Shown: positions 1 to 13,994, numbered from the stretch's first letter. The stretch: DNA of 64,000 nucleotides from Pelagibacteraceae bacterium (GCA_008638015.1 VTPD01000002.1:7724-71723), one strand, 5' to 3'. Made by a program: numbers and translations. Notes: generated from the sequence alone by a model not told the origin.

Positions 1-541
1 CTCTTTCTACTATTATTTTTAGTGCAACTGACTGAACTCTTCCTGCAGACTTAGAACCAGGTAATTTTGTCCATAATATTGGTGAAATATTAAAGCCAAC
101 CAAGTAGTCTAATGCGCGTCTTGCAAGATAAGCATTAACTAGTTCAATATTGATATCTCTGGGGTTTTCAATTCCATGCACAACTGCTTTTTTAGTAATT
201 TCATTAAAAACTACTCTTTCAACTTTTTTATCTTTTAATAAATTTTTTTCTTCTAAAATATGTTTTACATGCCAAGCAATAGCTTCACCTTCTCGATCAG
301 GGTCAGTAGCTAAAATAATTTTACTTGAGTCTTTAGCAGCGTCAGCAATTTCTTTAATATGTTTTTTTGATGTAACATCTATTTCCCATGTCATATTAAA
401 ATTATTATCTGTATCTACGGATCCATTTTTTGATGGCAAATCTCTGACATGACCAAAACTTGCAAGAACTACATAGTCATTACCGAGGTATTTATTAATA
501 GTTTTTGCTTTTGCGGGACTTTCTACAATAACAAGATTCAT
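1..541 (-). CDS. topA: DNA topoisomerase I, N-terminal part (runs off window edge)
   Basis: Not in ORF track; manual minus-strand translation from ATG at 541 gives MNLVIVESPAKAKTINKYLG...SFGHVRDL...LATDPDREGEAIAWH...SAGRVQS (TOPRIM motifs). Confidence 0.97.
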   Translation of the reverse strand, partial: MNLVIVESPAKAKTINKYLGNDYVVLASFGHVRDLPSKNGSVDTDNNFNMTWEIDVTSKKHIKEIADAAKDSSKIILATDPDREGEAIAWHVKHILEEKNLLKDKKVERVVFNEITKKAVVHGIENPRDINIELVNAYLARRALDYLVGFNISPILWTKLPGSKSAGRVQSVALKIIVER

Positions 542-607
542 AATGGATGAAGGACTGTCAAAAATTTACTCAATTGTCAAATTTTACCATTTTTAGACAA
601 TAAGGGC

Positions 608-636
608 TTGAATGAGTTTTTTAATTAGTATTTAAT
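608..636 (+). promoter_or_regulatory. Candidate sigma70 promoter for the gltI operon
   Basis: TTGAAT (608-613), 17-bp spacer, TTTAAT (631-636); AAGGGA RBS-like sequence just before ATG 671. Confidence 0.4.
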
Positions 637-670
637 AAGCAATAAAACTAACATTAAAAAGGGACATAAT

Positions 671-1552
671 ATGTTAAAATCATTAATTAAATCTGCTTTT
701 GTTGTGTTGTTAATGACAACATTTGCACAGGCAGCAGACTACGGGACTTTAAAAAAACTTAAAGATTCTGGCACAATTACAATAGGTCACAGAGAGTCAT
801 CTGTACCTTTTGCTTATTACAATAAATCACAAAAGCCTATTGGATACTCAATGGACTTATGTGAAAAAATTGTTCAAAGAGCTGAAAAGGAAATTGGAAA
901 AAAGCTTGTAAGAAAGTATTATCCAGTTAATCCAAAAACAAGAATTCAACTTCTTGCTAATGGAACAATAGACATTGAATGTGGCTCTACAACTAATAAT
1001 TTAACAAGACAGCAGCAAATTGATTATGCACATGTAACTTTTATTACTGGTACAAAGCTATTGGTAAAAAAATCAAGTGGCATAAAGTCAATTGATGACA
1101 TGAAAGGCAAAAAAATTGCTTTAGCACAAGGTACAACAAATGAAAAAGCTGTAGTCAAAATTAATTCTGATAAAAAACTTGGAATTAGTGTTGTTAACGT
1201 AAAAGATCATGCTGAAGGTTTCTTGGCTTTAGAAACTGGAAGGGTTGATGCTTATTCAACAGACCACATTTTATTATTTGGATTGATATCTAAAGCAAAA
1301 AAACCAGCTGACTATGCTGTAGTTGGAAGCTTTTTGTCTTACGACCCTTACGCAATTATGGTTAGAAGAGACGATTCAGCAATGCGTTTAGTTGCTAATT
1401 CTGAACTATCTGATCTGTTCAGATCTGGAGAAATTAATAAGATTTATGATAAATGGTTTATGAAACCATTGCCAGAAGGTGGAAAGGCGCTAAGCGTTCC
1501 ACAAACTGACCTGTTACAGGCTGCATTTACAATGCAAGCTTTGCCATACTAG
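671..1552 (+). CDS. gltI: Glutamate/aspartate-type ABC transporter substrate-binding protein
   Basis: Signal peptide; TIGHRESSVPFAY, RIQLLANGTIDIECGSTTNNLTRQQQIDY, GTTNE and D-x-ILL motifs of the GltI family. Confidence 0.85.
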   Translation: MLKSLIKSAFVVLLMTTFAQAADYGTLKKLKDSGTITIGHRESSVPFAYYNKSQKPIGYSMDLCEKIVQRAEKEIGKKLVRKYYPVNPKTRIQLLANGTIDIECGSTTNNLTRQQQIDYAHVTFITGTKLLVKKSSGIKSIDDMKGKKIALAQGTTNEKAVVKINSDKKLGISVVNVKDHAEGFLALETGRVDAYSTDHILLFGLISKAKKPADYAVVGSFLSYDPYAIMVRRDDSAMRLVANSELSDLFRSGEINKIYDKWFMKPLPEGGKALSVPQTDLLQAAFTMQALPY

Positions 1553-1566
1553 TTAAATCTTAATTT

Positions 1567-1597
1567 TTCATATGGGTCATTTTATGACCCATATGAA
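1567..1597 (+). terminator. Perfect 14-bp inverted repeat after the SBP gene (partial terminator or mRNA-stabilising hairpin)
   Basis: TTCATATGGGTCAT-ttt-ATGACCCATATGAA. Confidence 0.7.
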
Positions 1598-1614
1598 TCT
1601 AATCGTTTTTATCA

Positions 1615-2334
1615 ATGAAATATAACTGGAATTGGTCAGTCTTATTCGAGCAGCAGTACTTTGATTGGATTGTCTCAGGTACATTATGGACTATTTATTT
1701 ATCCTTAGCAGCTTCAGTTATAGCTTTTTTTTTAGGTTCATTAATTGGAATACTAAGAACTTTAGATAACAAAATTCTAAATTTTATTGGAACCACATAT
1801 GTAGAAATTTTTAGGAATATTCCGCTATTGGTTCAAATGTTCATTTGGTACTTTGTGTTTCCTGAATTAGTTCCAAAAGAATTTGGAAATTGGTTAAAAC
1901 AAGATTTACCTAACCCGGAATTTTCTTCAGCCTTGTTTTGTCTTGGTACCTACACTGCTTCACGAGTGGCAGAGCAAGTACGTTCAGGAATTAACTCTGT
2001 GTCGACTGGCGTTGGGAGTGCTGGTTATGCGACTGGCTTAACAACTTATCAACTTTATATTTATGTATTATTGCCAATTGCCTATAGAATTATAATTCCA
2101 CCATTAACATCAGAGTTTTTAACTATCTTTAAAAATTCATCACTCGCTTTAACAATAGGTCTGATGGAGCTAACGGCTCGAAGTAATATGATTATGGACT
2201 GGACTTTCCAAGGATTTGAAGCCTTTACTGCAGCAACAGTTATTTATGTTTCTGTAACAATGATCGTTACTTTAATTATGCAAAGAGTTGAGAGCAAAAC
2301 TCAAATACCAGGATTTATTAGGCAAAAAACATGA
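1615..2334 (+). CDS. gltJ: Polar amino acid ABC permease (GltJ-like)
   Basis: YVEIFRNIPLLVQMFIWYF, AEQVRSGI EAA-loop, PPLTSEFLTIFKNSS. Confidence 0.85.
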   Translation: MKYNWNWSVLFEQQYFDWIVSGTLWTIYLSLAASVIAFFLGSLIGILRTLDNKILNFIGTTYVEIFRNIPLLVQMFIWYFVFPELVPKEFGNWLKQDLPNPEFSSALFCLGTYTASRVAEQVRSGINSVSTGVGSAGYATGLTTYQLYIYVLLPIAYRIIIPPLTSEFLTIFKNSSLALTIGLMELTARSNMIMDWTFQGFEAFTAATVIYVSVTMIVTLIMQRVESKTQIPGFIRQKT

Positions 2335-2993
2335 TTAAAAATTTTGATTTTAATGTAATTGCAGATTCTTTGCCTTTTTTATGGAAGGGACTGCAGGTAA
2401 GTTTTTATTTAACTTTTTTAGCACTAATCGGAGGTATTTTGTTTGGTACCTTATTGGCCTTGATGAGAATATCTAATTTTAAATCATTGCAATATTTTTC
2501 CATGACCTATGTAAATTTTTTAAGATCTATGCCACTAATTTTAGTTATTTTTTGGTTTTTTTTCTTAATACCTCTCATAATTGGAAAACCAATTGGAGGT
2601 TTCTACTCTGCGGTTATTGCCTTTACAATGTTTGAAGCTGCTTATTATAGTGAAATTATTAGAGCAGGATTGCTAAGTGTTTCAAGCAATCAAATTGCAG
2701 CCGCTAGAGCTACTGGACTTACTTACTCTCAATCCATGATTTACATAATACTACCACAGGCATTTCGAAATATGATACCTGTACTGCTTACTCAAGCAGT
2801 AATTTTATTTCAAGATACATCATTGGTGTATGTAGTAAGTTTAAGAGATTTTATGACAGCAAGCTCTATAGTGGCACAAAGTCAATCAAGACTTGTTGAG
2901 ATGTATTTGTTTGCAGCTTTAATTTATTTTTTAATATGTTTTACTTTTTCCTTTATGATTAAAAGAATTCAAAATAGAAAGGTTGTGCAATGA
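2331..2993 (+). CDS. gltK: Polar amino acid ABC permease (GltK-like)
   Basis: [35 protein letters not shown]. Confidence 0.85.
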
Positions 2994-3718
2994 TAGAATT
3001 AAAAAATGTAAGCAAATGGTATGGAACCTTTCAAGTTTTAAAAGATTGCAGTGTAACTATTCAGAAAAGTGATGTCATGGTTATTTGCGGACCCTCTGGT
3101 TCGGGTAAATCTACATTGATCAAGTGTGTGAATGGATTAGAAAAGTTTCAAGAAGGTGAAATTTTTGTAGATTCTATCAAGGTTAATGATCCAAAAACTA
3201 ATTTAAATGATTTGAGAGCAAAAATCGGAATGGTATTTCAAAATTTTGAATTATACCCACACATGTCAGTTTTAAAAAATATCTCATTAGCTCAAGTTAA
3301 GGTTTTAAAAAGAAGTTTAGATGAAGCCGATGCCAAATCTATGTCTTTATTAGAAAGGGTAGGTTTGAAAGATCAAGCTACTAAATTTCCAGCACAATTG
3401 TCTGGCGGACAACAACAACGAGTTGCTATTGCAAGAGCATTGGCCATGGATCCAATTGCCATGCTATTTGATGAGCCTACTTCAGCACTAGATCCAGAAA
3501 TGATCAATGAGGTTTTGGATGTTATGGTTGAATTGGCGCAAGATGGTATGACAATGGCTGTGGTGACTCATGAAATGGGTTTTGCAAAAAAAGTTGCAGA
3601 TAAAATTTTATTTATGGATGAAGGGCGAGTAGAAGAAACAGCAGATAAAGAGACCTTTTTTGAAAATCCAAAATCAGATCGCACTAAACTATTTTTGTCT
3701 AAAATATTATCTCACTAG
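2990..3718 (+). CDS. gltL: Polar amino acid ABC ATPase (GltL/GlnQ-like)
   Basis: Walker [10 protein letters not shown], signature [27 protein letters not shown]. Confidence 0.9.
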
Positions 3719-3752
3719 TGGTTATTAATAAAAACTGCTAAATCATCATTTG

Positions 3753-4469
3753 ATGGCAAAAAAACAAAGTAAAATGGTTGGTATTATTGGTGGCATGGGC
3801 CCACATGCATCTAACCGTTTTATGGAAATTTTTTATAACTACAAAAACCAAGCTATTGAGAGCAATTATCCAAGGCTAATTCTAGATAGCAACACACAAA
3901 TTCCTAGTAGAGTAAAAGCGATATTTACAAAAAGCAAAAGCCCAGCATCCGCAATGATAGATAGTGCAAAAAAACTCCAACAATTTGGTTGTGATGCAAT
4001 TGCAATTCCCTGCAATACAGCTCACGCATGGCATGCCGATATTGAAAAAAAAATACAAATTCCTGTTTTTAATATTATTGATTGTGTCTATGATGAAATT
4101 AAAGCAAAGCTACCAAATAAATTAATTAATGTTTATATTTTTGGCACACAAGCAACACAAAAACTAAGGTTGTATGAGAGTAAACTTAATAAAAATAAAA
4201 ATTTAAATATTCATATAGTAAATAAGAATATTCAATCCAAAATTGATAAGATAATTTTTCTTATAAAAAAAAATAATTTACAAAAGCAATATATTAGTAA
4301 ATTTAAAAAAATAATATCTCTATTGAAATTAAAAAATAAAAATAATGTTGTAATTCTAGGTTGTACAGAGTTATCTTATTTCAAAGATATAAGTTTAAGC
4401 AATTGTACTTTAATTGATTCAAGTTTTGTTTTGGCAAAAAAAACTTATCATTTTTGTGAGAAAAAATAA
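3753..4469 (+). CDS. Aspartate/glutamate racemase family protein (RacD/RacX-like)
   Basis: GIIGGMGP, PCNTAH and GCTE two-cysteine motifs; ATG at 3753 (ORF track starts at TTG 3750). Confidence 0.85.
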   Translation: MAKKQSKMVGIIGGMGPHASNRFMEIFYNYKNQAIESNYPRLILDSNTQIPSRVKAIFTKSKSPASAMIDSAKKLQQFGCDAIAIPCNTAHAWHADIEKKIQIPVFNIIDCVYDEIKAKLPNKLINVYIFGTQATQKLRLYESKLNKNKNLNIHIVNKNIQSKIDKIIFLIKKNNLQKQYISKFKKIISLLKLKNKNNVVILGCTELSYFKDISLSNCTLIDSSFVLAKKTYHFCEKK

Positions 4470-4477
4470 TTTTTTAA

Positions 4478-5239
4478 ATGCCTGAGATTAATAATTTTTC
4501 ATATATAGATGAAGGCAAAGGCTTCCCCCTGGTGTTAGTCCATGGTTTTTTAGGAAATGCGGAAATGTGGAGACCCCAAATTGATGAATTTAAAAAATAT
4601 TTTAGAGTTATAGCCCCTGATTTACCAGGTTATGGAAAAAATAATAAATATAAATTAATTAATAGCATTGAAGGTTTTGCTTCTGAAATTTTTAATTTTT
4701 TACAAAATTTAAAAATTGAAAAATTTAACTTACTTGGTCATTCTATGGGTGGAATGATTGTGCAGCAAATGAGTGTTAATTTTTCAAGTCATATCAATAA
4801 ATTAATTTGCTATAGCACTGGTTCTATTGGAGAAATGCCAAATAGATTTGAAACCATTGATGAATCTAGAAAAAAAATAAAAACAAATGGATTAGAAATT
4901 ACTTCCTTAAATATTGCAAAAACTTGGTTTGTGAACGGTGAAAATGATCCTAATTTTTATCTTTGCAAAAATGCATCCTCCGAAACAACTTTGGACGCTG
5001 CTGACGCTTCCTTAGTGGCCATGAAATCATGGAATGGAAAAAATAACCTTTATAAAATCAATAACAAAACACTTATCATCTGGGGAGATTTAGATAAATC
5101 TTATGACAAAAACCAAATTGATATTTTGCATAGCAATATAAAAAACAGTGAATTAAAAATTGTAAATGGCTTCGCGCATAACGTGCATCTTGAAAATCCT
5201 AAAATTTTTAATAAATTATTGTTAGATTTTTTAATTTAA
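4478..5239 (+). CDS. Alpha/beta fold hydrolase, substrate unknown
   Basis: HGF oxyanion motif, APDLPGYG, GHSMGG nucleophile elbow, WGDLD, C-terminal AHNVHLENP. Confidence 0.9.
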   Translation: MPEINNFSYIDEGKGFPLVLVHGFLGNAEMWRPQIDEFKKYFRVIAPDLPGYGKNNKYKLINSIEGFASEIFNFLQNLKIEKFNLLGHSMGGMIVQQMSVNFSSHINKLICYSTGSIGEMPNRFETIDESRKKIKTNGLEITSLNIAKTWFVNGENDPNFYLCKNASSETTLDAADASLVAMKSWNGKNNLYKINNKTLIIWGDLDKSYDKNQIDILHSNIKNSELKIVNGFAHNVHLENPKIFNKLLLDFLI

Positions 5240-5309
5240 AATATATTTGACAAGTCAATAATTAAAGTGAATTATTGCAGTCTATTAATTAACTAAATAA
5301 AGGGGATTT

Positions 5310-6281
5310 ATGAAAATTGTAAAAAGTTTAGTTGCAACACTTATTGTGAGTTTGTTTGCAACATCTGCTTTTTCAGCTGAAAAAGTAAAAATTGGTGATC
5401 CAGGTTGGCCTGGAGCAAAAGCTATAGCTCATTTATTGCAAGCGGTAGTAAAAGACAAGATTGGTGGTGAAGCTGATATTGTTCCTGGTAATAATGCTGC
5501 AATTTACGGTGCTATTGAAAGAGACAAGGGTGAGATTGAAGTTCATCCAGATATTTGGTTACCAAACCAAGAAGGATTTACAAAAAAACTTGTTAGTGGA
5601 TCTGGCAATGGAAAATTAGTGATGAGCAAAAATCCTTATGAAGGAAATCAAGGATATTGTGTTTCTAAAAATTTTGCTAAAAAATACAAAATTACTTCAA
5701 TTTTTGATCTTGGAAGACCAGAAGTTGTTAAAGCAATGGATAGTGATGGAAATGGAAAAGGTGAATTCTGGATTGGAGCACCTGGATGGGCATCAGCAAA
5801 TGTAAATGAGATCAAAGTAAGAGATTACAAATTACTAGAAGCTGGTATTGAGCCTATTAGAGCTAATGAGCCTGTTAAAGATGCAAGAGTTAAAGACTCC
5901 ATTGCAAAAGGCGAGGGTTATGCTTTCTATTGCTACAAGCCACATGCGATTTGGTCTACTTATGATATTGTAATGTTAACAGAGCCAAAACACGATCCAG
6001 CAAAATATAAAATGGTTCAACCCAATGCTGATCCAGATTGGCAAAAGAAATCTTATGTTGCGAGTAAAGATGCACTTAAGCAAATTCAAATTGGATGGTC
6101 TAAAAGTTTAGAAGCAAAGTCTCCTGCAATCGCAGGTTTCTTTAAGAAGTTTCAACTTACTGCTGATGACGTAGGTGCTTTAGCTTATGAAATTTCAACT
6201 AAAAAAAGAAATCCTACTGAAGTAGCAAGAGAATGGATGAAGAAAAATCCTAAAAAAGTTGACGCTTGGTTAGGATTATAA
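5310..6281 (+). CDS. Glycine betaine/proline/quaternary-amine family ABC substrate-binding protein (ProX/OpuAC-like)
   Basis: Signal peptide; EVHPDIWLPNQ, GAPGWAS, FYCYKPH, VAREWM...VDAWL; AAGGGG RBS; followed by proV/proW-like genes. Confidence 0.8.
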   Translation: MKIVKSLVATLIVSLFATSAFSAEKVKIGDPGWPGAKAIAHLLQAVVKDKIGGEADIVPGNNAAIYGAIERDKGEIEVHPDIWLPNQEGFTKKLVSGSGNGKLVMSKNPYEGNQGYCVSKNFAKKYKITSIFDLGRPEVVKAMDSDGNGKGEFWIGAPGWASANVNEIKVRDYKLLEAGIEPIRANEPVKDARVKDSIAKGEGYAFYCYKPHAIWSTYDIVMLTEPKHDPAKYKMVQPNADPDWQKKSYVASKDALKQIQIGWSKSLEAKSPAIAGFFKKFQLTADDVGALAYEISTKKRNPTEVAREWMKKNPKKVDAWLGL

Positions 6282-6302
6282 TCCATAATCTTTAAAATAT
6301 TT

Positions 6303-6337
6303 AAATTAACCTGGTAATATAATTACCAGGTTAATTT
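6303..6337 (+). terminator. Perfect 16-bp inverted repeat after the SBP gene
   Basis: AAATTAACCTGGTAAT-ata-ATTACCAGGTTAATTT. Confidence 0.7.
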
Positions 6338-6363
6338 CATCTCAAATTATTGTACAAACACTC

Positions 6364-7407
6364 ATGACTGAAGTTGCTATAAAAGTTGAAAATGTTTGGA
6401 AAATATTTGGAAATAATTCTCAAGAAGTAATTCACTCCATACAAAACAATAGTATTAGTAAAAAAGAAGCTTTGGAAAAGTACAATGCGGTCATTGGAGT
6501 TTCCGATGTGAGTTTTGAAGTTCTGCAAGGAGAAATTTTTTGCATAATGGGTCTTTCTGGTAGTGGAAAATCTACCTTAGTTAGACATTTTAATCGTTTA
6601 TTAGAACCCACTTCAGGAAAAATATTAATCAATGGTATTGATATTATGGGTCTGGATGAGCTTACATTGAGAGAATATAGAAATAAAAAAATTGGCATGG
6701 TATTCCAAAATTTTGCATTAATGCCTCATAGGTCAGTCATAGATAATATTGCAATGCCATTAGAAATTAGAGGAATTAATAAAAATCAACGATATCAAGA
6801 AGTTGAAAAAATTTTAGAAATAGTTGAGCTTACGGGATGGGGCAATAAATATGCTCATGAATTATCTGGTGGGATGCAACAAAGAGTAGGTTTGGCCAGA
6901 GCTTTAGCTGCAGATCCAGAGTTATTGCTTATGGATGAGCCTTTTAGTGCTTTAGATCCACTAATTAGGAGGCAGTTACAAGAGGAATTCATTAATTTGT
7001 CTAAAAAAATGAAAAAAACAACCATATTTATTACTCATGATTTAGATGAAGCTGTAAGAGTAGGTCATAGAATTGCAATCATGCGTGATGGTCAAGTTAT
7101 TCAGGTTGGAACACCAGAGGAAATTATTTTAAATCCTGTTGATGAGTACGTGAAAGAATTTGTTAAAGGGATATCAAGATTAAAAGTAGTAAAGGCACAT
7201 AGTATTATGATGCCTATAGAGAATTATAAAAATCTCAATCAATCCATTCCGAAAAATTCATACAAAATTTTAGAGGATGATAATTTAAATAAAATTATAG
7301 AAGCAGCCATAAATCAAGATGAGGATATTACGGTATATGATGAAAGCAATAATCTGGTCGGCATTATTGATAAAAAAAATCTTTTAAAAAATGTGGTTGA
7401 AAAATAG
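6364..7407 (+). CDS. proV: Glycine betaine/proline-type ABC ATPase (ProV/OpuAA-like)
   Basis: [43 protein letters not shown], reduced CBS-like tail. Confidence 0.85.
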   Translation: MTEVAIKVENVWKIFGNNSQEVIHSIQNNSISKKEALEKYNAVIGVSDVSFEVLQGEIFCIMGLSGSGKSTLVRHFNRLLEPTSGKILINGIDIMGLDELTLREYRNKKIGMVFQNFALMPHRSVIDNIAMPLEIRGINKNQRYQEVEKILEIVELTGWGNKYAHELSGGMQQRVGLARALAADPELLLMDEPFSALDPLIRRQLQEEFINLSKKMKKTTIFITHDLDEAVRVGHRIAIMRDGQVIQVGTPEEIILNPVDEYVKEFVKGISRLKVVKAHSIMMPIENYKNLNQSIPKNSYKILEDDNLNKIIEAAINQDEDITVYDESNNLVGIIDKKNLLKNVVEK

Positions 7408-7410
7408 ATT

Positions 7411-8889
7411 ATGAATTATGACTCTGAAATAACAAAATTTGTAAAAACAAATTCTTCTTATTATATAAGAGAATTTACTAGAATTGGTAACAGTTCGAAA
7501 AAAGTTTTTTCTTTTAATATTTTTGCTTCTCTTTTAGGACCCGTATGGTTTGGATCAAGAAATATCTGGAATTATGCATTAACTTTTTTAATTTTAGAAA
7601 CTTTTTCTATAGTTCAAATTATGCGAGGTTTTTTTGGAAATGTAACTACTGAAATTTATTCTAAAATAGCTGGTATAGAAAGCACATTGGTGTTTCGTAA
7701 TAAGCAATTATCAGCAGCATATGAAAAAGCTCCTGAAAAAGTAGCGGTTTTCAAGAGAGCAATAGAGTCTTTAGAAAAAGCAATAACAGATTATAAATTG
7801 GAGGCGAAGGCAATAGAGGAGAGTGCTATTTATATAGCAATTTTTGGAATTGTAGGATTATTTATAATAAAAATTATTCAAGGAATTGTTGCTAATCATA
7901 TATTGGAAAAAAAATTTTCTAATTATTTGTCTGATAGTTCCATAAGTGCAGAAATTAAAAGCAAAAATATATTTTTTAGTATTTTGTTTACGATAACAAT
8001 TATTATTTTTACTTCTATACATTATGCTTTTCCAGATACTTGGATTTTTTTAAATAACTTTCCAACTCACCCAGATATTAGACTAACTTCTATAAAGTGG
8101 ATTGAAACAGGATTTAATTTTGCCACGTTAAAAGGAGATGCATTTTTTGATGGTGTTAGCCAGGCTATTAGATCAGTTTTAGATTTTCTTGAACTTTTAT
8201 TTTTAGGAACGCCCTGGATTGTAATATTTTCGGTAATTGTTCTTTTGACAACATTATCAGCTGGTCCAAGAGCAGGAATAATTACTGGTTCTTTTTTGGC
8301 CTACATGGGGCTTTTGGGTTTTTGGAAACTTGCTATGATCACTATAGCACTTCTTAATACAGCTGCAGCATTAAGTATAATTATTGGAATACCGCTCGGT
8401 ATTTATTGTTCACGTAGGCCAAAATTTTACTCTTTTATAAGACCTATTATGGACTTTATGCAAACAATGCCAGCGTTTGTCTTTATGATACCTGTCATTG
8501 CCTTCTTTGGGGTTGGTAAAGTTGCGGCTGTTTTAATAACAATGATTTTTGGTGGAACACCAGTTGTTCGTTTTACAGTGCTTGCTTTAAAAGGAGTTCC
8601 AGAAAATGTTAGAGAGGCTGCTATTTCTTATGGAGCCTCTAAGTGGTATTTATTAAGAAAAGTGGACCTACCACTAGCCGCTCCTACTATTATGGCAGGT
8701 GTTAATCAAACTGTGTTGCTTAGCTTAACTATGGTTGTTGTTGCTTCATTAGTTGGAGCAAAGGGTCTTGGTTTAGAAGTTCTTGAGGCACTCCAATATA
8801 CAAATGTTGGACAAGGAATATTAGCAGGTATTGCAATATTATTTTGTGCTTTGATCTTGGATAAAATAGTTCAAGGAAAGAAAAATTAA
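7411..8889 (+). CDS. proW: ProW-type ABC permease with long N-terminal membrane/coiled extension
   Basis: C-terminal half RPIMDFMQTMPAFVFMIP, EAAISYGAS, AGVNQTVLLSL; ~230 extra N-terminal residues. Confidence 0.8.
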   Translation: MNYDSEITKFVKTNSSYYIREFTRIGNSSKKVFSFNIFASLLGPVWFGSRNIWNYALTFLILETFSIVQIMRGFFGNVTTEIYSKIAGIESTLVFRNKQLSAAYEKAPEKVAVFKRAIESLEKAITDYKLEAKAIEESAIYIAIFGIVGLFIIKIIQGIVANHILEKKFSNYLSDSSISAEIKSKNIFFSILFTITIIIFTSIHYAFPDTWIFLNNFPTHPDIRLTSIKWIETGFNFATLKGDAFFDGVSQAIRSVLDFLELLFLGTPWIVIFSVIVLLTTLSAGPRAGIITGSFLAYMGLLGFWKLAMITIALLNTAAALSIIIGIPLGIYCSRRPKFYSFIRPIMDFMQTMPAFVFMIPVIAFFGVGKVAAVLITMIFGGTPVVRFTVLALKGVPENVREAAISYGASKWYLLRKVDLPLAAPTIMAGVNQTVLLSLTMVVVASLVGAKGLGLEVLEALQYTNVGQGILAGIAILFCALILDKIVQGKKN

Positions 8890-8893
8890 ATTA

Positions 8894-9460
8894 TTATTTT
8901 TCTGTACCAGCAATAAGTCTCTTAATGTTTTCTCTATGTGTGTAAATTGAAAAAATAAAAAAGAAAAAATTTAAATAAGTAATATTAAGATCATAAAAAA
9001 AGTATGAACAAGGAATTATAATTAAAAATGCAATTAAAGCAGATATAGAGGATATTTTAAATAATTTAGCAATTATTAACCAACTCAAACCATAAATTAC
9101 AAATAATACAGGATTTAAAATTAGTATATTTCCAATGTAAGTAGCCACACCCTTACCACCTTTAAATTTTAACCATACTGGAAACACATGACCCAAGTAA
9201 ACGATAATTGCAGATAAATACGCATATTCAGAAAAGTATAATAAACTCAAGAAAACAGCCAAAGAACCTTTGCCCACATCAAAAATTAAAGTGAGAAGTG
9301 CTAATTTTTTACTTCCAGTTCTTAAGGCGTTTGTTGCTCCTATGTTGCCTGAACCAATTTTTCTGATGTCGCCGAAACCTAATAGATGAGAAAATAAAAG
9401 ACCAAATGGAATACTGCCTAATAGGTATGAATAAATTACAACTATAAAAAAACTCATCAA
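8894..9460 (-). CDS. plsY: Glycerol-3-phosphate acyltransferase
   Basis: YLLGSIPFG, GSGNIGATNALR, FKGGKGVAT, HRENIKRL. Confidence 0.97.
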   Translation of the reverse strand: MMSFFIVVIYSYLLGSIPFGLLFSHLLGFGDIRKIGSGNIGATNALRTGSKKLALLTLIFDVGKGSLAVFLSLLYFSEYAYLSAIIVYLGHVFPVWLKFKGGKGVATYIGNILILNPVLFVIYGLSWLIIAKLFKISSISALIAFLIIIPCSYFFYDLNITYLNFFFFIFSIYTHRENIKRLIAGTEK

Positions 9461-10743
9461 TTACTAAAAACTAATCTACCATTAATAAATGTTTTTTCTA
9501 CTTTGCCCTGTAGTTTTCTATTTTCGATTGCTGTATTTTTAGATTTGGATTGGATATTTTCTTTTTTTAGTACCCAGGGTTTTTCTAAATCAAAAATTGT
9601 AATATCTGCTTCTCCACCAATTGACAATGTTCCATTTCTTATTCCTAAAATTTTAGCTGGGTTAGATGTGAGATTTTTTATTACCGTATTTAAATCACAA
9701 AGATTATTATGAACAAGTTCTAAGGCAAGGGGAAGAAGCGTCTCTATACCTGAAGCTCCTGTTGTTGCTTGCTGAAAAGTTAATCGTTTAGATTCTTCAT
9801 CTTCAGGTTTGTGATCTGATACTATTACATCAATTATTCCTTCATTCACCGCATGAATTAGTGCCAGTCTATCTTCTTCACTGCGAAGGGGAGGTGATAA
9901 TTTTAAAAAAGTTCTAAAGTCACCTATATCATTATCATTAAGAGACAGATTATTAATTGAAACACCGACAGAAAATTTCATTCCCTTTTCTTTTGCAGAT
10001 TTAATTAAATCAATAGATTTTTTTGATGATATCAGGGCAATATGATATTTTGTTTTATATTGCTCTAATAATCTTAGGTCTCTTTCTATAATAATTTGTT
10101 CTGCTATATCGGGTATTCCTTTTAAACCAAGCTTAGTAGCTAGTAGGCCATCATTCACAACTCCATTTTCTGACAAAAAGTTATCTTGCGCAAATTGAAT
10201 AATTAAAACATCTGTATTTTTTCCATAGTTAAAAATTTGATCCATCACTTTATTATTTTGAACACAACTAACACCATCAGTAAAACCCCATGCCCCTCGT
10301 AATTTTAAAAGACCGAATTCAGTCATATCATTACCTTCGGCATTTTTAGTTAGTGTAGCCAAAGGAAATACTTTAATGATTGATTTATCTCTTGATCTTC
10401 TTTTCACGAAATCAAGTGTTGATACATTATCAATAACTGGAACTGTATTTGGCATGGTAGCAACTGCAGTAACACCTCCAGATATTGCTGCTTGACTTAA
10501 GGTTCTAAAATTTTCTTTATATTCAAATCCAGGCTCCCCAACAAAGACGCGCATATCAATAATACCAGGTATGGTAATTTTGTTCTTACAATCATAAATT
10601 TCTGCGTCGGAGATATTTTCTTTTGTAACTGTTGTTCCTAACGCTTCAATTCTTCCTTTTTCATTAATTAAAATTCCTCCAATTTCATCAATATTATTTG
10701 CTGGGTCTATAATTCTTGTATTGAGGATACACTGTTTTTTCAT
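9457..10743 (-). CDS. pyrC: Dihydroorotase (or PyrC'-like partner of PyrB)
   Basis: [30 protein letters not shown]; adjacent to pyrB. The DMRV in place of DxHxH suggests a possibly inactive PyrC'. Confidence 0.85.
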
Positions 10744-11690
10744 TTATTATTTTCCATTAAAATTTTTAGCACTGCCATTCTCACTGCAACACCCATCTCA
10801 ACTTGTTGTACAATAATACTGCGATTAATGTCGTCAGCTAAATTAGTATCAATTTCTATTCCACGGTTCATTGGGCCTGGATGCATAATTAATGCATCTG
10901 GTTTAGCATTTTTTATTTTTTTATAATCAAGTGCAAAAAATTCATAATATTCTCTTGTGGATGGTACGTAAGATCCATCCATTCGTTCTGTTTGCATTCT
11001 TAGCATCATAATAATATCAGAACCTTCCAGGCCTTTTTCCATATTAGTAAATGCTTTCACTCCAAAAGCCTCTATGTGTTTTGGCATAAGAGTAGAAGGT
11101 CCAATTACCCTCACTTCTGCACCAAGCATATTTAATAAGTAAATATTAGATCTTGCTACTCTTGAATGCATAATATCTCCACAGATAGCCACTCTTAACC
11201 CTTCAATCTTTCCTTTTTTCATTTTTATTGTCATTGCATCTAACAATGCTTGGGTAGGATGCTCTCTTCTTCCATCTCCAGCATTAATGACAGAGCAGTT
11301 AACTTTTTGTGATAATAAATTAGCAGCACCAGAATCCTGATGTCTTATTACTAAAATATCTGGATGCATTGCATTTAAAGTCATTGCAGTATCTATAAGT
11401 GTTTCACCCTTTTTGATGGATGAATTCACAACGTTCATATTCATTACATCTGCACCAAGTCTTTTACCTGCAAGCTCAAAAGAACTTAAAGTTCTAGTTG
11501 AGTTTTCAAAAAATAAATTGATTTGTGTTTTTCCATTAAGAATTTTTAATTTTTTATTTTCCTGACGATTAAGCTCTACAAATGCCAATGACTCATCCAG
11601 AATAAGATTTACCTCTGGAATAGATAAATATTGAATACCTAAAAGATGTTTGTGATTAAATTTAATAGCTTGATTTTGGTTTGATGCCAT
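10740..11690 (-). CDS. pyrB: Aspartate carbamoyltransferase catalytic subunit
   Basis: [24 protein letters not shown]. Confidence 0.98.
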
Positions 11691-11730
11691 TAAAACCAGG
11701 TCTATAGGCTGATTTTGATATCAAAGCAAG

Positions 11731-12201
11731 TTATTTGTTTAAATAGTCAATAAAACCTTGCAAAATAAAAGCTGCTGAATTTTCATCCAATCTCTCTTTT
11801 TTAGATGAGCTATTAATGTTTAATTTCTCCATGCTTTTAAATGCACCTTCGCTAGATAATCTTTCATCCCACAAAGTGACAGGTAAAGAAATAAATTTTA
11901 ATATATTTTTAACAAAGTCCTTCGTTGATTGAGACCTTCGACCTTCAGAACCATCCATGTTTATTGGGTGACCAACAACTATACCTTTAATTTCATTTTC
12001 TAAAATTATTTTATTTAATTTTTCAATGACATTTTTAAGCTTGTCCACTTTGATAGTTTCATAAGGTGTAGCTATAATGTGCGAGCTATCACAAATGGCC
12101 ACTCCAATATTTTTTTTACCAGGATCAATTCCTATCAAACGCGAGCTTTTACCAACTTCTTGGGCAAATTCAGAATTCTCTAAAAGGTTGTAAGTTTTCA
12201 T
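11731..12201 (-). CDS. ruvX: Pre-16S rRNA nuclease YqgF/RuvX
   Basis: IGIDPGKKNIGVA, LWDERLSS, AAFILQG. Confidence 0.93.
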   Translation of the reverse strand: MKTYNLLENSEFAQEVGKSSRLIGIDPGKKNIGVAICDSSHIIATPYETIKVDKLKNVIEKLNKIILENEIKGIVVGHPINMDGSEGRRSQSTKDFVKNILKFISLPVTLWDERLSSEGAFKSMEKLNINSSSKKERLDENSAAFILQGFIDYLNK

Positions 12202-12238
12202 TAAAGTGTTAATTTACCGTAATTTTTCACTAAGTCTA

Positions 12239-12526
12239 ATGTCAATTAATAAAGAAACAGTAAAGAAAATTTCAAAGTTATCAAGAATTGCTTCAAATGA
12301 ACAATTTGAAGACTCTATGATTAAAGATCTTAATTCTATTTTGACATTTGTTGAACAGTTAAATGAATTAAACATTAAAAATATTGAACCTTTATCCTCT
12401 GTCGTAGAGCAAAAATTATTTCAGCGAGAAGATGTTGTTAAAATAATGAATGAAAAGGAAGATGTATTAAAAAACTCACCACATAAAAATGAGAATTATT
12501 TTGTAGTTCCAAAAGTGATCGAATAA
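12239..12526 (+). CDS. gatC: Glu/Asp-tRNA amidotransferase subunit C
   Basis: KISKLSRI...REDVV...YFVVPKVIE; start revised to ATG 12239. Confidence 0.95.
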   Translation: MSINKETVKKISKLSRIASNEQFEDSMIKDLNSILTFVEQLNELNIKNIEPLSSVVEQKLFQREDVVKIMNEKEDVLKNSPHKNENYFVVPKVIE

Positions 12527-12530
12527 TTGA

Positions 12531-13994
12531 ATGACTACAATTGCAAAATATACTTTAGTTGAACTAGTTAACAAAATTAAGTCCAAAGAAATTTCAGCTG
12601 TTGACGCTACAAATGCCTATGTTGAAAGAATTCAAAAATCAAAAAAATTAAATGCATTTGTGACTGAAACTTTAGAAAGTGCTTTAGAGCAAGCAAAAAA
12701 GGCTGATGAAATTAATCAAAAAGATGGAGCTTTATCTTGTGCGCCGATTGCGGTTAAGGATTTATTTTGTACTAAAAATGTTCAAACTACTGCATCAAGT
12801 AAAATTTTAAAAAATTTTATTCCTACTTATGAGTCTACCGTCACTTCTAAACTTTGGGACCAGGGTGCGTTTCTTTTAGGAAAATTAAATTGTGATGAAT
12901 TTGCCATGGGATCTTCCAACGAAACAAGCGCTTATGGTAATGTTATTAATCCCTACAAAAATAATAATGACGATTTAGTTCCCGGAGGTTCATCTGGAGG
13001 TTGCTCTTCAGCTGTAGCTGCTGATTTAACATCTGCTACCGTTGGAACAGACACAGGTGGATCTATTAGACAACCAGCTGCTTTTACTGGGATAGTTGGA
13101 TTAAAGCCTACTTATGGCAGGTGTTCAAGGTGGGGAATTGTTGCTTTTGCATCCTCATTAGATCAGGCAGGACCCATGACTAAAGATGTTGCTGATAGTG
13201 CATTAATGCTTGATGTAATTTCAGGTCATGATGAAAAAGACTCAACTTCAGCAAATGTTAAGAAAGGAGAATTCTTAAAAAATTTAAATAAAGATATTAA
13301 AGGCTTAAAGGTAGGAATTCCAAAGGAATACATCGTAGACAATATGCCAAAAGCAATACAATCTTTATGGGATAAGGGAATAGAGTTAATGAAAGACTCT
13401 GGCGCTATTATTAAAAATATTTCATTACCACACACAAAGTACGCTCTGCCGACGTATTACATAGTTGCTCCAGCTGAAGCCTCTTCTAATTTAGCTCGTT
13501 ATGACGGTGTAAAATATGGTTTTAGAGCTCCAGGAAAAGATTTAATAGAAATGTATGAAAATACTAGAGCTCAGGGGTTTGGCAATGAGGTTAAACGAAG
13601 AATTATGATTGGAACTTATGTTTTGTCTTCCGGTTACTATGATGCTTATTATTTAAAAGCTCAACAAGTTAGAAGATTAATTAAAAATGATTTTGATAGT
13701 GTTTTTAATGAAGTGGATACAATTTTAACACCTACTGCACCATCTTCTGCTTTTAAAATTGGAGACAAAACTGAAGATCCAATTTCTATGTATCTGAACG
13801 ATGTTTTTACCGTCCCTGTAAATTTAGCAGGATTGCCTGCAATTTCTTTACCAGGAGGATTAGATGAAACTGGTTTGCCTTTAGGATTGCAGTTAATTGG
13901 AAAATCTTTTGATGAACAAACTGTTTTAAATGCTGCGTATGCATTGGAGGAAAAAATTGGATTTCAATCACAAGTAAAAGATTGGTGGATGTAA
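12531..13994 (+). CDS. gatA: Glu/Asp-tRNA amidotransferase subunit A
   Basis: [40 protein letters not shown]. Confidence 0.98.

Follow-up and report, generated by a model that had tools for sequence, protein, structure and literature searches.

A candidate module for cysteate uptake and racemisation on a flexible genomic island of a SAR11 bacterium

In a 64,000-nucleotide stretch of DNA from a Pelagibacteraceae bacterium (GCA_008638015.1, VTPD01000002.1:7724-71723; this whole stretch is referred to as the window), positions 671-4469 of the + strand carry five intact, tightly packed open reading frames (ORFs), which code in this order for a periplasmic substrate-binding protein (SBP), two permeases, the ATPase of an ATP-binding cassette (ABC) transporter, and a racemase. 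On balance, we favour the interpretation that these genes form a module for the uptake and racemisation of cysteate, which is situated on a flexible 8.3-kb island of this SAR11 genome and would feed an L-cysteate route. Cysteate (2-amino-3-sulfopropionate) is an algal sulfur compound and the sulfonate analogue of aspartate. In the proposed mechanism, the GltI-like SBP, whose side-chain pocket is predicted to be shortened by a proline at the position of Ser72 of GltI, would capture an acidic amino acid of the size of aspartate, most likely cysteate, which would be imported by the two permeases and the ATPase. The two-cysteine racemase would interconvert D- and L-cysteate, the useful direction being probably D to L, since the genome has no CuyA, and L-cysteate would pass by transamination to 3-sulfopyruvate and by reduction to sulfolactate, from which a SuyAB-like lyase would release pyruvate and sulfite. 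Cysteate appears to be a better candidate than glutamate or aspartate because the SBP lies outside the GltI clade, carries the proline at the Ser72 position, and belongs to a clade which is linked to cuyA and CuyB-type racemases.

The initial annotation, made from the sequence alone, had described the locus as a GltIJKL-type importer coupled to an aspartate racemase, serving to scavenge D-aspartate and D-glutamate. The gene content given there, i.e. four Glt-like genes followed about 34 bp later by a racemase with the cysteine motifs PCNTAH and GCTE, was confirmed by the ORFs, the Pfam and NCBIfam matches and the motifs, and the functional tie between an ABC importer of the acidic amino acid type and a racemase independent of pyridoxal phosphate (PLP) is supported. 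The proposed substrates are not supported, since the SBP clade is linked to cuyA and CuyB-type racemases and not to genes of glutamate or aspartate metabolism; D-glutamate is an unlikely substrate. The proposed direction, import of a D-amino acid followed by conversion to the L-form, is still plausible, but for cysteate.

The binding protein and the gene neighbourhoods of its clade

The five proteins of the locus belong to the Pfam families SBP_bac_3, BPD_transp_1 (both permeases), ABC_tran, and Asp_Glu_race, with NCBIfam in agreement, and the first four are the best reciprocal matches of Escherichia coli GltI, GltJ, GltK, and GltL (40, 47, 47, and 72% identity, respectively), with which they also share the gene order I-J-K-L. 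To this extent the designation as GltIJKL type is appropriate, but the SBP (250.5 bits with NF008063, GltI) and the GltK-like permease (223.9 bits with NF011687) remain below the curated cut-offs of 375 and 318 bits, Ser72 is not kept, and the SBP falls into a separate clade. The solved structure closest to the SBP is the glutamate/aspartate-binding protein DEBP of Shigella (2VHA, 225 bits). In the alignment, the ligand contacts R24, S27, R75, S90, T92, R97, T140, H164, and D182 of GltI are kept, and the contacts to the alpha-amino and alpha-carboxylate groups as well as most side-chain contacts are retained. Two positions differ: Ser72 of GltI is replaced by proline (Pro88, nt 932-934) and Asp183 by histidine (His200, about nt 1268-1270). 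Of the substitutions tried on GltI-based sensors in a saturation screen, S72P gave the strongest selectivity for aspartate, and the engineered exchange moves GltI from glutamate towards the shorter aspartate (bioRxiv 10.1101/2023.06.27.546775); the SBP described here is a natural counterpart of the engineered S72P variant used in aspartate biosensors.

Proline at position 72 (GltI numbering) is shared by 115 of the 120 closest homologues in the database, which are 60-98% identical to the SBP and derive from SAR11-like contigs, Rhodospirillales, Hyphomicrobiaceae, and metagenome-assembled genomes (MAGs) of Gammaproteobacteria, and is also present in 17 of 80 genome loci. In a maximum-likelihood tree of 87 SBPs, the window protein is part of a clade of 20 sequences, in the following termed the Pro72 clade, which is separated with a support of 100/96 from 67 canonical SBPs of the GltI/AatJ type. 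The canonical group includes E. coli GltI, proteins of Pseudomonas and Bradyrhizobium, and the Ser72 SBPs of a further SAR11 genus (g14); the transporters of the latter were rejected as representatives of the same system, being of the canonical Ser72 GltI type and without any racemase.

The genes found next to these SBPs separate the two groups. Within 8 kb of the SBP gene, 14 of the 20 members of the Pro72 clade have either a cuyA-type gene of the D-cysteine desulfhydrase family (nine members) or a PF01177 racemase gene (five members), and none of the 67 canonical loci has one. Three further cuyA-linked loci (L147, L169 of Roseovarius mucosus, and L170 of Leisingera aquaemixtae) bring their number to 12. 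The identity of cuyA was tested with the D-cysteate sulfo-lyase model NF052482, whose curated cut-off of 450 bits was exceeded at L051 (455.6 bits), L052 (523 bits), and L147 (452.6 bits) as well as in R. mucosus (527.7 bits) and L. aquaemixtae (515.6 bits); in the last two species, a LysR gene lies divergent from the row cuyA-SBP-permease-permease-ATPase. At L051, the SBP is 89% identical to that of the window with all binding motifs identical, and its gene adjoins cuyA and a gene for a YeiH-type putative sulfate exporter. In the congener G061, the genes for this transporter (79% identical at the nucleotide level) are accompanied by cuyA and a sulfate-exporter-like yeiH gene, which stand in for the racemase gene of the window. 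In this genome and in contig L147, yeiH and cuyA face the row hydrolase-OpuAC-proV-proW-SBP-permease-permease-ATPase, i.e. the same modules as in the cassette of the window, but with cuyA and yeiH instead of the racemase gene. As a side observation, the SBP gene of L147 (8200-9082) is broken within an A-rich stretch (KAKK), where a frameshift reflects either an error of the assembly or recent pseudogenisation.

The adjacency of transporter and racemase genes, which is shared by G068, the only other genome of the genus found to have the module, also occurs in two Hyphomicrobiaceae MAGs, whose racemase does not cluster with that of the window in the racemase tree. CuyA was not found in any of the five genomes with a racemase gene next to or near the transporter, i.e. 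the genome of the window (G000; 1.09 Mb, 67 contigs, 95% complete), G068 (not found, 65% complete), the two Hyphomicrobiaceae MAGs, and Oceaniglobus ichthyenteri. Conversely, none of five genomes in which cuyA adjoins the transporter yielded a CuyB-like racemase at E <= 1e-10, nor did G061 (70% complete). Three genomes are exceptions to this reciprocal pattern in that they hold both, and completeness of the genomes is uneven; two of the three, Algihabitans albus and a Kiloniellales MAG, are His183 genomes in which no cuy gene adjoins the Pro72 transporter and a cuyA-cuyB pair is located elsewhere on the chromosome.

CuyA prefers D-cysteate 50- to 100-fold (PMC11193023). With this preference and the reciprocal occurrence of cuyA and racemase genes, the simplest reading is that the transporters deliver D-cysteate or both enantiomers, and we tentatively consider it possible that the entire Pro72/His183 clade does so, the D-form being handled either by CuyA alone or, in this SAR11 lineage and a few others, by the racemase alone, which would act from D to L ahead of a transaminase and a SuyAB-type route. 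Histidine at the position of GltI Asp183, which adjoins the alpha-amino-binding Asp182, is found in most SBPs of the Pro72 clade, and Asp183 is kept in L073, the sole locus with both cuyA and a racemase gene within 8 kb of the transporter. The state of residue 183 may relate to a preference for one enantiomer.

CuyA-like genes, whose scores of 431-452 bits reach the cut-off or fall slightly short of it, are present in 12 of 200 Pelagibacteraceae genomes searched, including G061. Most of these genomes belong to genus g4, where the CuyA-like gene (G003, L152/L156) is located about 4 kb from genes for a TauA-like SBP and an ABC ATPase, with no Pro72 transporter there.

The racemase, its substrate, and the fate of cysteate

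Both catalytic cysteines of the racemase are kept (Cys87 in PCNTAH, nt 4008-4025; Cys204 in GCTE, nt 4359-4370), and the protein, the sole racemase of the PF01177-type family found in the genome, matches PF01177 with 108 bits. Its best NCBIfam model is that of the cysteate racemase CuyB (NF052483, 177.3 bits); it also passes the generic amino-acid (aspartate-type) model TIGR00035 (129.8 bits, cut-off 93.1 bits). The nearest solved structures are the aspartate racemases 5B19 and 1JFL, and in the alignment to them an arginine (IPSR) and a lysine (IKK) are retained, which align with the side-chain-binding residues of AspR from Pyrococcus horikoshii. The alignment motifs did not decide between aspartate and cysteate, and we infer the substrate from the genomic context rather than from the racemase sequence itself. 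The racemases encoded near this transporter clade in other genomes all exceed the cut-off of NF052483, with 220.7 bits in a Hyphomicrobiaceae MAG of identical gene order, 278.6 bits in Oceaniglobus, and 255.3 bits in an Ectothiorhodospiraceae MAG, which also has cuyA; their margin over TIGR00035 is 84 to 150 bits. A separate (starred) clade of the racemase tree comprises racemases encoded beside cuyA, as in the cuyA-cuyB-hpsN row of a Ruegeria plasmid, or near a Pro72 transporter (Oceaniglobus, L073).

Some of these properties would also suit a transporter for the D- and L-aspartate of dissolved organic matter, paired with an aspartate racemase that supplies central metabolism with L-aspartate made from the D-form. 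The score above the cut-off of TIGR00035 and below that of the CuyB model, the structural matches with the retained arginine and lysine, and the aspartate preference conferred on GltI by S72P all agree with such a function, for which the absence of CuyA poses no problem; in addition, CuyB of Bilophila wadsworthia (BwCuyB) was never tried on aspartate (PMC11193023), and a horizontally acquired aspartate racemase is reported to enable D-aspartate use in Shigella (PMC6980539). We nevertheless regard aspartate as an unlikely substrate, given that SBPs of 89% identity with identical pocket motifs adjoin cuyA and a sulfate-exporter-like gene, that the 12 cuyA-linked loci of the clade are not matched by any recurrent aspartate-catabolic neighbour (the lyase-family gene at L052 is fumC by score), and that the racemases near this clade elsewhere favour the CuyB model so clearly over the generic one.

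Two further observations concern relatives of the racemase. The best match from outside SAR11 (P0005) was considered as part of a cuy cluster and rejected, its neighbouring PLP enzyme being threonine-synthase-like and not CuyA. Distant paralogues in other SAR11 genera, with about 35% identity and a CuyB-model score of 165 bits, occur in sulfonate-type contexts: in genus g5 (G056, L044 813-9078), the paralogue comes immediately after a TauABC-like transporter and has genes for a class-III aminotransferase, an Ldh_2 dehydrogenase, and Pta on its flanks, and in genus g8 (G177, L043 2156-6981) it is located near Pta and an HpsN-like dehydrogenase.

Candidate enzymes for the degradation of L-cysteate are present in the genome. 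A gene set on contigs C58 and C67 comprises a SuyA/SuyB-like split dehydratase pair, an Ldh_2 enzyme with L-sulfolactate dehydrogenase as best, albeit sub-cut-off, match, a D-2-hydroxyacid dehydrogenase, Pta, and an HpsN-like dehydrogenase. The genome also encodes Xsc (831 bits, above cut-off) and a TauABC-Tpa-Ald cluster; ComDE sulfopyruvate decarboxylase was not found in it. With E. coli AspC as tblastn probe no match was obtained in the genome, and a Pfam search of it revealed an aspartate transaminase of the alphaproteobacterial type (571 bits). Because SuyAB-like, dehydrogenase, and transaminase genes are present, a route from L-cysteate via sulfopyruvate and sulfolactate to pyruvate and sulfite is plausible for this organism, and expression of SuyAB by SAR11 MAGs has been reported (bioRxiv 10.1101/2024.12.10.627767). 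Given such a route, the racemase is required only where D-cysteate enters the cell.

A number of points weigh against the cysteate interpretation. The racemase misses the curated cut-off of the CuyB model (190 bits), and a protein named aspartate racemase (P0023) scores 235 bits, above this cut-off, so that the model is not substrate-specific. In its tree, the racemase has no reliable neighbours: together with its G068 orthologue and a metagenomic protein of 50% identity, it occupies a long branch of unusual composition, which is joined weakly to other long branches. SPO3040 (CuyT) of Ruegeria pomeroyi, looked for as an experimental anchor of the Pro72 clade, did not turn up in the set of 80 genome loci or in the list of 120 homologues; moreover, in a published comparison of Roseobacter genomes cuyTUVW is almost confined to R. 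pomeroyi (PMC10130141), unlike the Pro72 clade, which is frequent in this group. In the genome of the window, searches for CuyA with TIGR01275, NF052482, and PF00291 yielded solely CysK/CBS-like proteins and PALP proteins of 413 and 464 amino acids (aa), so that the textbook route from CuyB to CuyA is absent, and an importer of L-cysteate would have no need of a racemase. Finally, the SuyAB-like and sulfolactate-dehydrogenase-like genes were assigned via context and sub-threshold matches.

The lack of CuyA could also mean that the standard CuyB-CuyA pathway operates, L-cysteate being imported, racemised to the D-form, and cleaved, and that cuyA is hidden in the unassembled 5% of the genome. 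The assembly state (67 contigs, 95% complete), the existence of CuyA in the Pelagibacteraceae listed above, including G061, and the combination of a Pro72 transporter with a cuyA-cuyB pair at another locus in A. albus and the Kiloniellales MAG lend this some credit. It is improbable all the same, as CuyA was not found in G000, G068, two Hyphomicrobiaceae MAGs, or the isolate O. ichthyenteri, and the five genomes whose cuyA adjoins the transporter gave no CuyB-like racemase; this reciprocal pattern would be unexpected for a racemase that serves to feed CuyA.

The 3' half of the racemase gene was confirmed to be AT-rich, with a GC content of 18% and a GC content at third codon positions (GC3) of 12%, versus 34% GC in the 5' half. 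The suggestion that the gene might be drifting was rejected. Synonymous sites are saturated between G000 and G068 (dS about 1), and the dN/dS ratios are 0.016 for the SBP, 0.019 and 0.017 for the GltJ- and GltK-like permeases, and 0.010 for the ATPase; for the racemase the ratio is 0.07 overall, with 0.04 in the N-terminal and 0.11 in the C-terminal half, compared to 0.05-0.06 for neighbouring genes, and its frame is intact in both species, with no stops or indels. All five genes are under purifying selection. As the adjacency of transporter and racemase genes is kept across two species despite the high dS and recurs in Hyphomicrobiaceae MAGs, it reflects more than chance. The weakest alternative, in which the racemase would, for example, produce a D-amino acid destined for the cell envelope or act on another substrate and be no more than an island neighbour of the transporter, could appeal to its faster evolution (0.07 versus 0.01-0.02) and to a 31-34 bp gap in which no Shine-Dalgarno-like or promoter-like site stands out, but it is rendered very improbable by this conserved adjacency, by its renewed origin in Hyphomicrobiaceae with a racemase that does not cluster with that of the window, by the lack of a terminator-like site between the ATPase and racemase genes, and by the occurrence of cuyA instead of the racemase gene on a congener's island.

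Island context, companion genes, and expression signals

The coordinates of the features are compiled in Table 1. The locus is part of an 8.3-kb block (671-8889), which is inserted between plsY and topA. In five congeners plsY directly abuts topA, i.e. the block is absent from this site and the view that dprA is its normal occupant does not apply to the genus, and among 11 sampled genomes of the genus only G068 has the module as well, in a collinear segment of 10.4 kb with 87% nucleotide identity. Its rarity in the genus and the contiguity of plsY and topA in the five congeners identify the block as an accessory insertion. The view of an acquired module is upheld in this respect, but not the beta- or gammaproteobacterial origin proposed for it, as the nearest SBPs come from Alphaproteobacteria (Hyphomicrobiaceae, Rhizobiaceae, Roseobacter group, Rhodospirillales) and marine Gammaproteobacteria. 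An ABC permease and ATPase of the Aap/Bzt general amino acid type are encoded on another contig of the genome (C24, L002 24-1380), so that the Pro72 transporter is an addition to the usual alphaproteobacterial system and no replacement.

Table 1 Features of the locus and its surroundings, with positions counted from the first nucleotide of the window
Feature	Position	Strand	Evidence
Promoter-like site TTGTCA-16-GACAAT in the 129-bp divergent topA/SBP spacer	574..601	+	Consensus scan; no more sites than in shuffled sequence, weak indication
Periplasmic SBP, GltI-like, Pro72 clade, candidate cysteate binder	671..1552	+	PF00497
Intercistronic 14-bp perfect stem-loop within the spacer (62 bp) that separates the SBP gene from the first permease gene	1567..1597	+	-20.9 kcal/mol, z-score -4.7
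Permease, GltJ-like	1615..2334	+	Pfam, NCBIfam, 47% identity to E. coli GltJ
Permease, GltK-like; 4-bp overlap with each neighbour	2331..2993	+	Pfam, NCBIfam, 47% identity
ABC ATPase	2990..3718	+	Pfam, NCBIfam, 72% identity to E. coli GltL
PLP-independent two-cysteine racemase, candidate cysteate racemase, possibly also active on aspartate	3753 (ATG; alternative TTG 3750)..4469	+	PF01177
Companion module: alpha/beta hydrolase (4478-5239), OpuAC-type SBP (5310-6281), ProV-like ATPase (6364-7407), ProW-like permease (7411-8889)	4478..8889	+	Pfam

The remainder of the island is formed by a companion module. Within the genus, its hydrolase and OpuAC/ProV/ProW genes accompany the Pro72 transporter in two gene orders, that of the window and that of L147 (3578-8035) and L155/G061 (9427-12582), the latter being flanked by cuyA and yeiH; between the two versions of the module the hydrolase is 52% identical, and OpuAC and ProV are 78-83% identical. 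At L051 (2177-2284), the stretch between cuyA and the SBP gene contains a 109-bp remnant that matches the proW 3' end with its downstream junction (window 8800-8906) at 81% identity, and it is a trace of a rearrangement from an L147-like order, in which proW precedes the SBP gene. These arrangements suggest that the companion module is functionally linked to the sulfonate island.

We infer co-transcription of the five genes. A good ribosome-binding site precedes the SBP start, no terminator-like site is present between the ATPase and racemase genes, and the gap from the ATPase stop to the racemase start (31-34 bp, depending on the start codon) contains no Shine-Dalgarno-like motif or promoter-like site that stands out. 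Stable hairpins of differing sequence occur at the position of the stem-loop in G068, L051, L147, and L148, and since the sequences differ at the same spot in these four loci, it is the structure rather than the sequence that is conserved. The element is probably an mRNA stabiliser or attenuator which would provide an excess of the SBP over the other components. In E. coli, the small RNA (sRNA) SroC is located at the equivalent gltI-gltJ spacer. A search of positions 1-9500, stem-loop included, gave no match to an Rfam family.

Significance and comparison with known systems

SAR11 cells dominate the surface ocean and rely on high-affinity binding proteins, so that each new substrate assignment in this group alters models for the turnover of dissolved organic carbon and sulfur. 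The module described here suggests a hitherto undescribed way for these abundant cells to use cysteate; no description of cysteate uptake or of cuy genes in SAR11 was found in the literature searched. By its sequence, the Pro72 clade marks what is probably a family of cysteate importers; such transporters could then be counted in metagenomes, and the clade extends to members of the Roseobacter group, Rhodospirillales, and marine Gammaproteobacteria. If these transporters indeed deliver the D-form, D-cysteate would be a significant and so far unmeasured part of marine dissolved organic sulfur. The authors of the CuyA/CuyB study ask which cysteate enantiomer occurs in nature (PMC11193023), and the presence of a racemase without CuyA in this genome versus that of CuyA without a racemase in a congener makes the question directly testable.

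The module differs from the known systems in the Pro72-marked SBP clade, the SAR11 host, the direct succession of transporter and racemase genes, and the absence of CuyA. The experimentally verified cysteate importer CuyTUVW of R. pomeroyi DSS-3 (SPO3040-3043) is likewise a four-gene ABC system of the polar amino acid family (PMC10130141). In the present case cysteate is assigned on account of the genes cuyA and cuyB linked to the clade. The transporter and the genes cuyB and cuyA occupy separate loci in R. pomeroyi, whereas in the window the racemase gene directly follows the ATPase gene and there is no cuyA. The cysteate racemase CuyB and the D-cysteate sulfo-lyase CuyA are biochemically established in B. 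wadsworthia and R. pomeroyi (PMC11193023). With CuyB the window racemase shares the PLP-independent two-cysteine fold and its best-scoring curated family, and cuyA lies beside the same transporter clade in relatives; the differences are the score of 177 bits (<190), the lack of CuyA, and the presumed direction of the racemase, which would convert the D- to the L-form for a transaminase and a SuyAB-type route instead of supplying CuyA with D-cysteate made from the L-form. Bilophila furthermore employs a symporter of the SDF family instead of an ABC system.

With GltIJKL of E. coli and Shigella (DEBP, 2VHA), the transporter has the gene order, an identity of 40-72%, and most ligand contacts in common, but it is set apart by the separate SBP clade, the GltI and GltK scores below cut-off, the exchanges Ser72 to Pro and Asp183 to His, and the linkage to sulfonate catabolism. 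The aspartate racemase of the Shigella SRL island is another horizontally acquired PF01177 racemase proposed to permit the use of the D-form of an acidic amino acid (PMC6980539); it is not known to have a linked ABC importer of the Pro72 clade, and the substrate in the present case is more likely cysteate. Paracoccus pantotrophus NKNCYSA dissimilates L-cysteate via transamination, sulfolactate, and SuyAB (summarised in PMC11193023). The SuyAB-like genes, the Ldh_2-type dehydrogenase, and the aspartate-transaminase-type enzyme of the SAR11 genome could run the same L-cysteate route, to which this genome adds a candidate for a racemase entry step that the Paracoccus pathway does not have.

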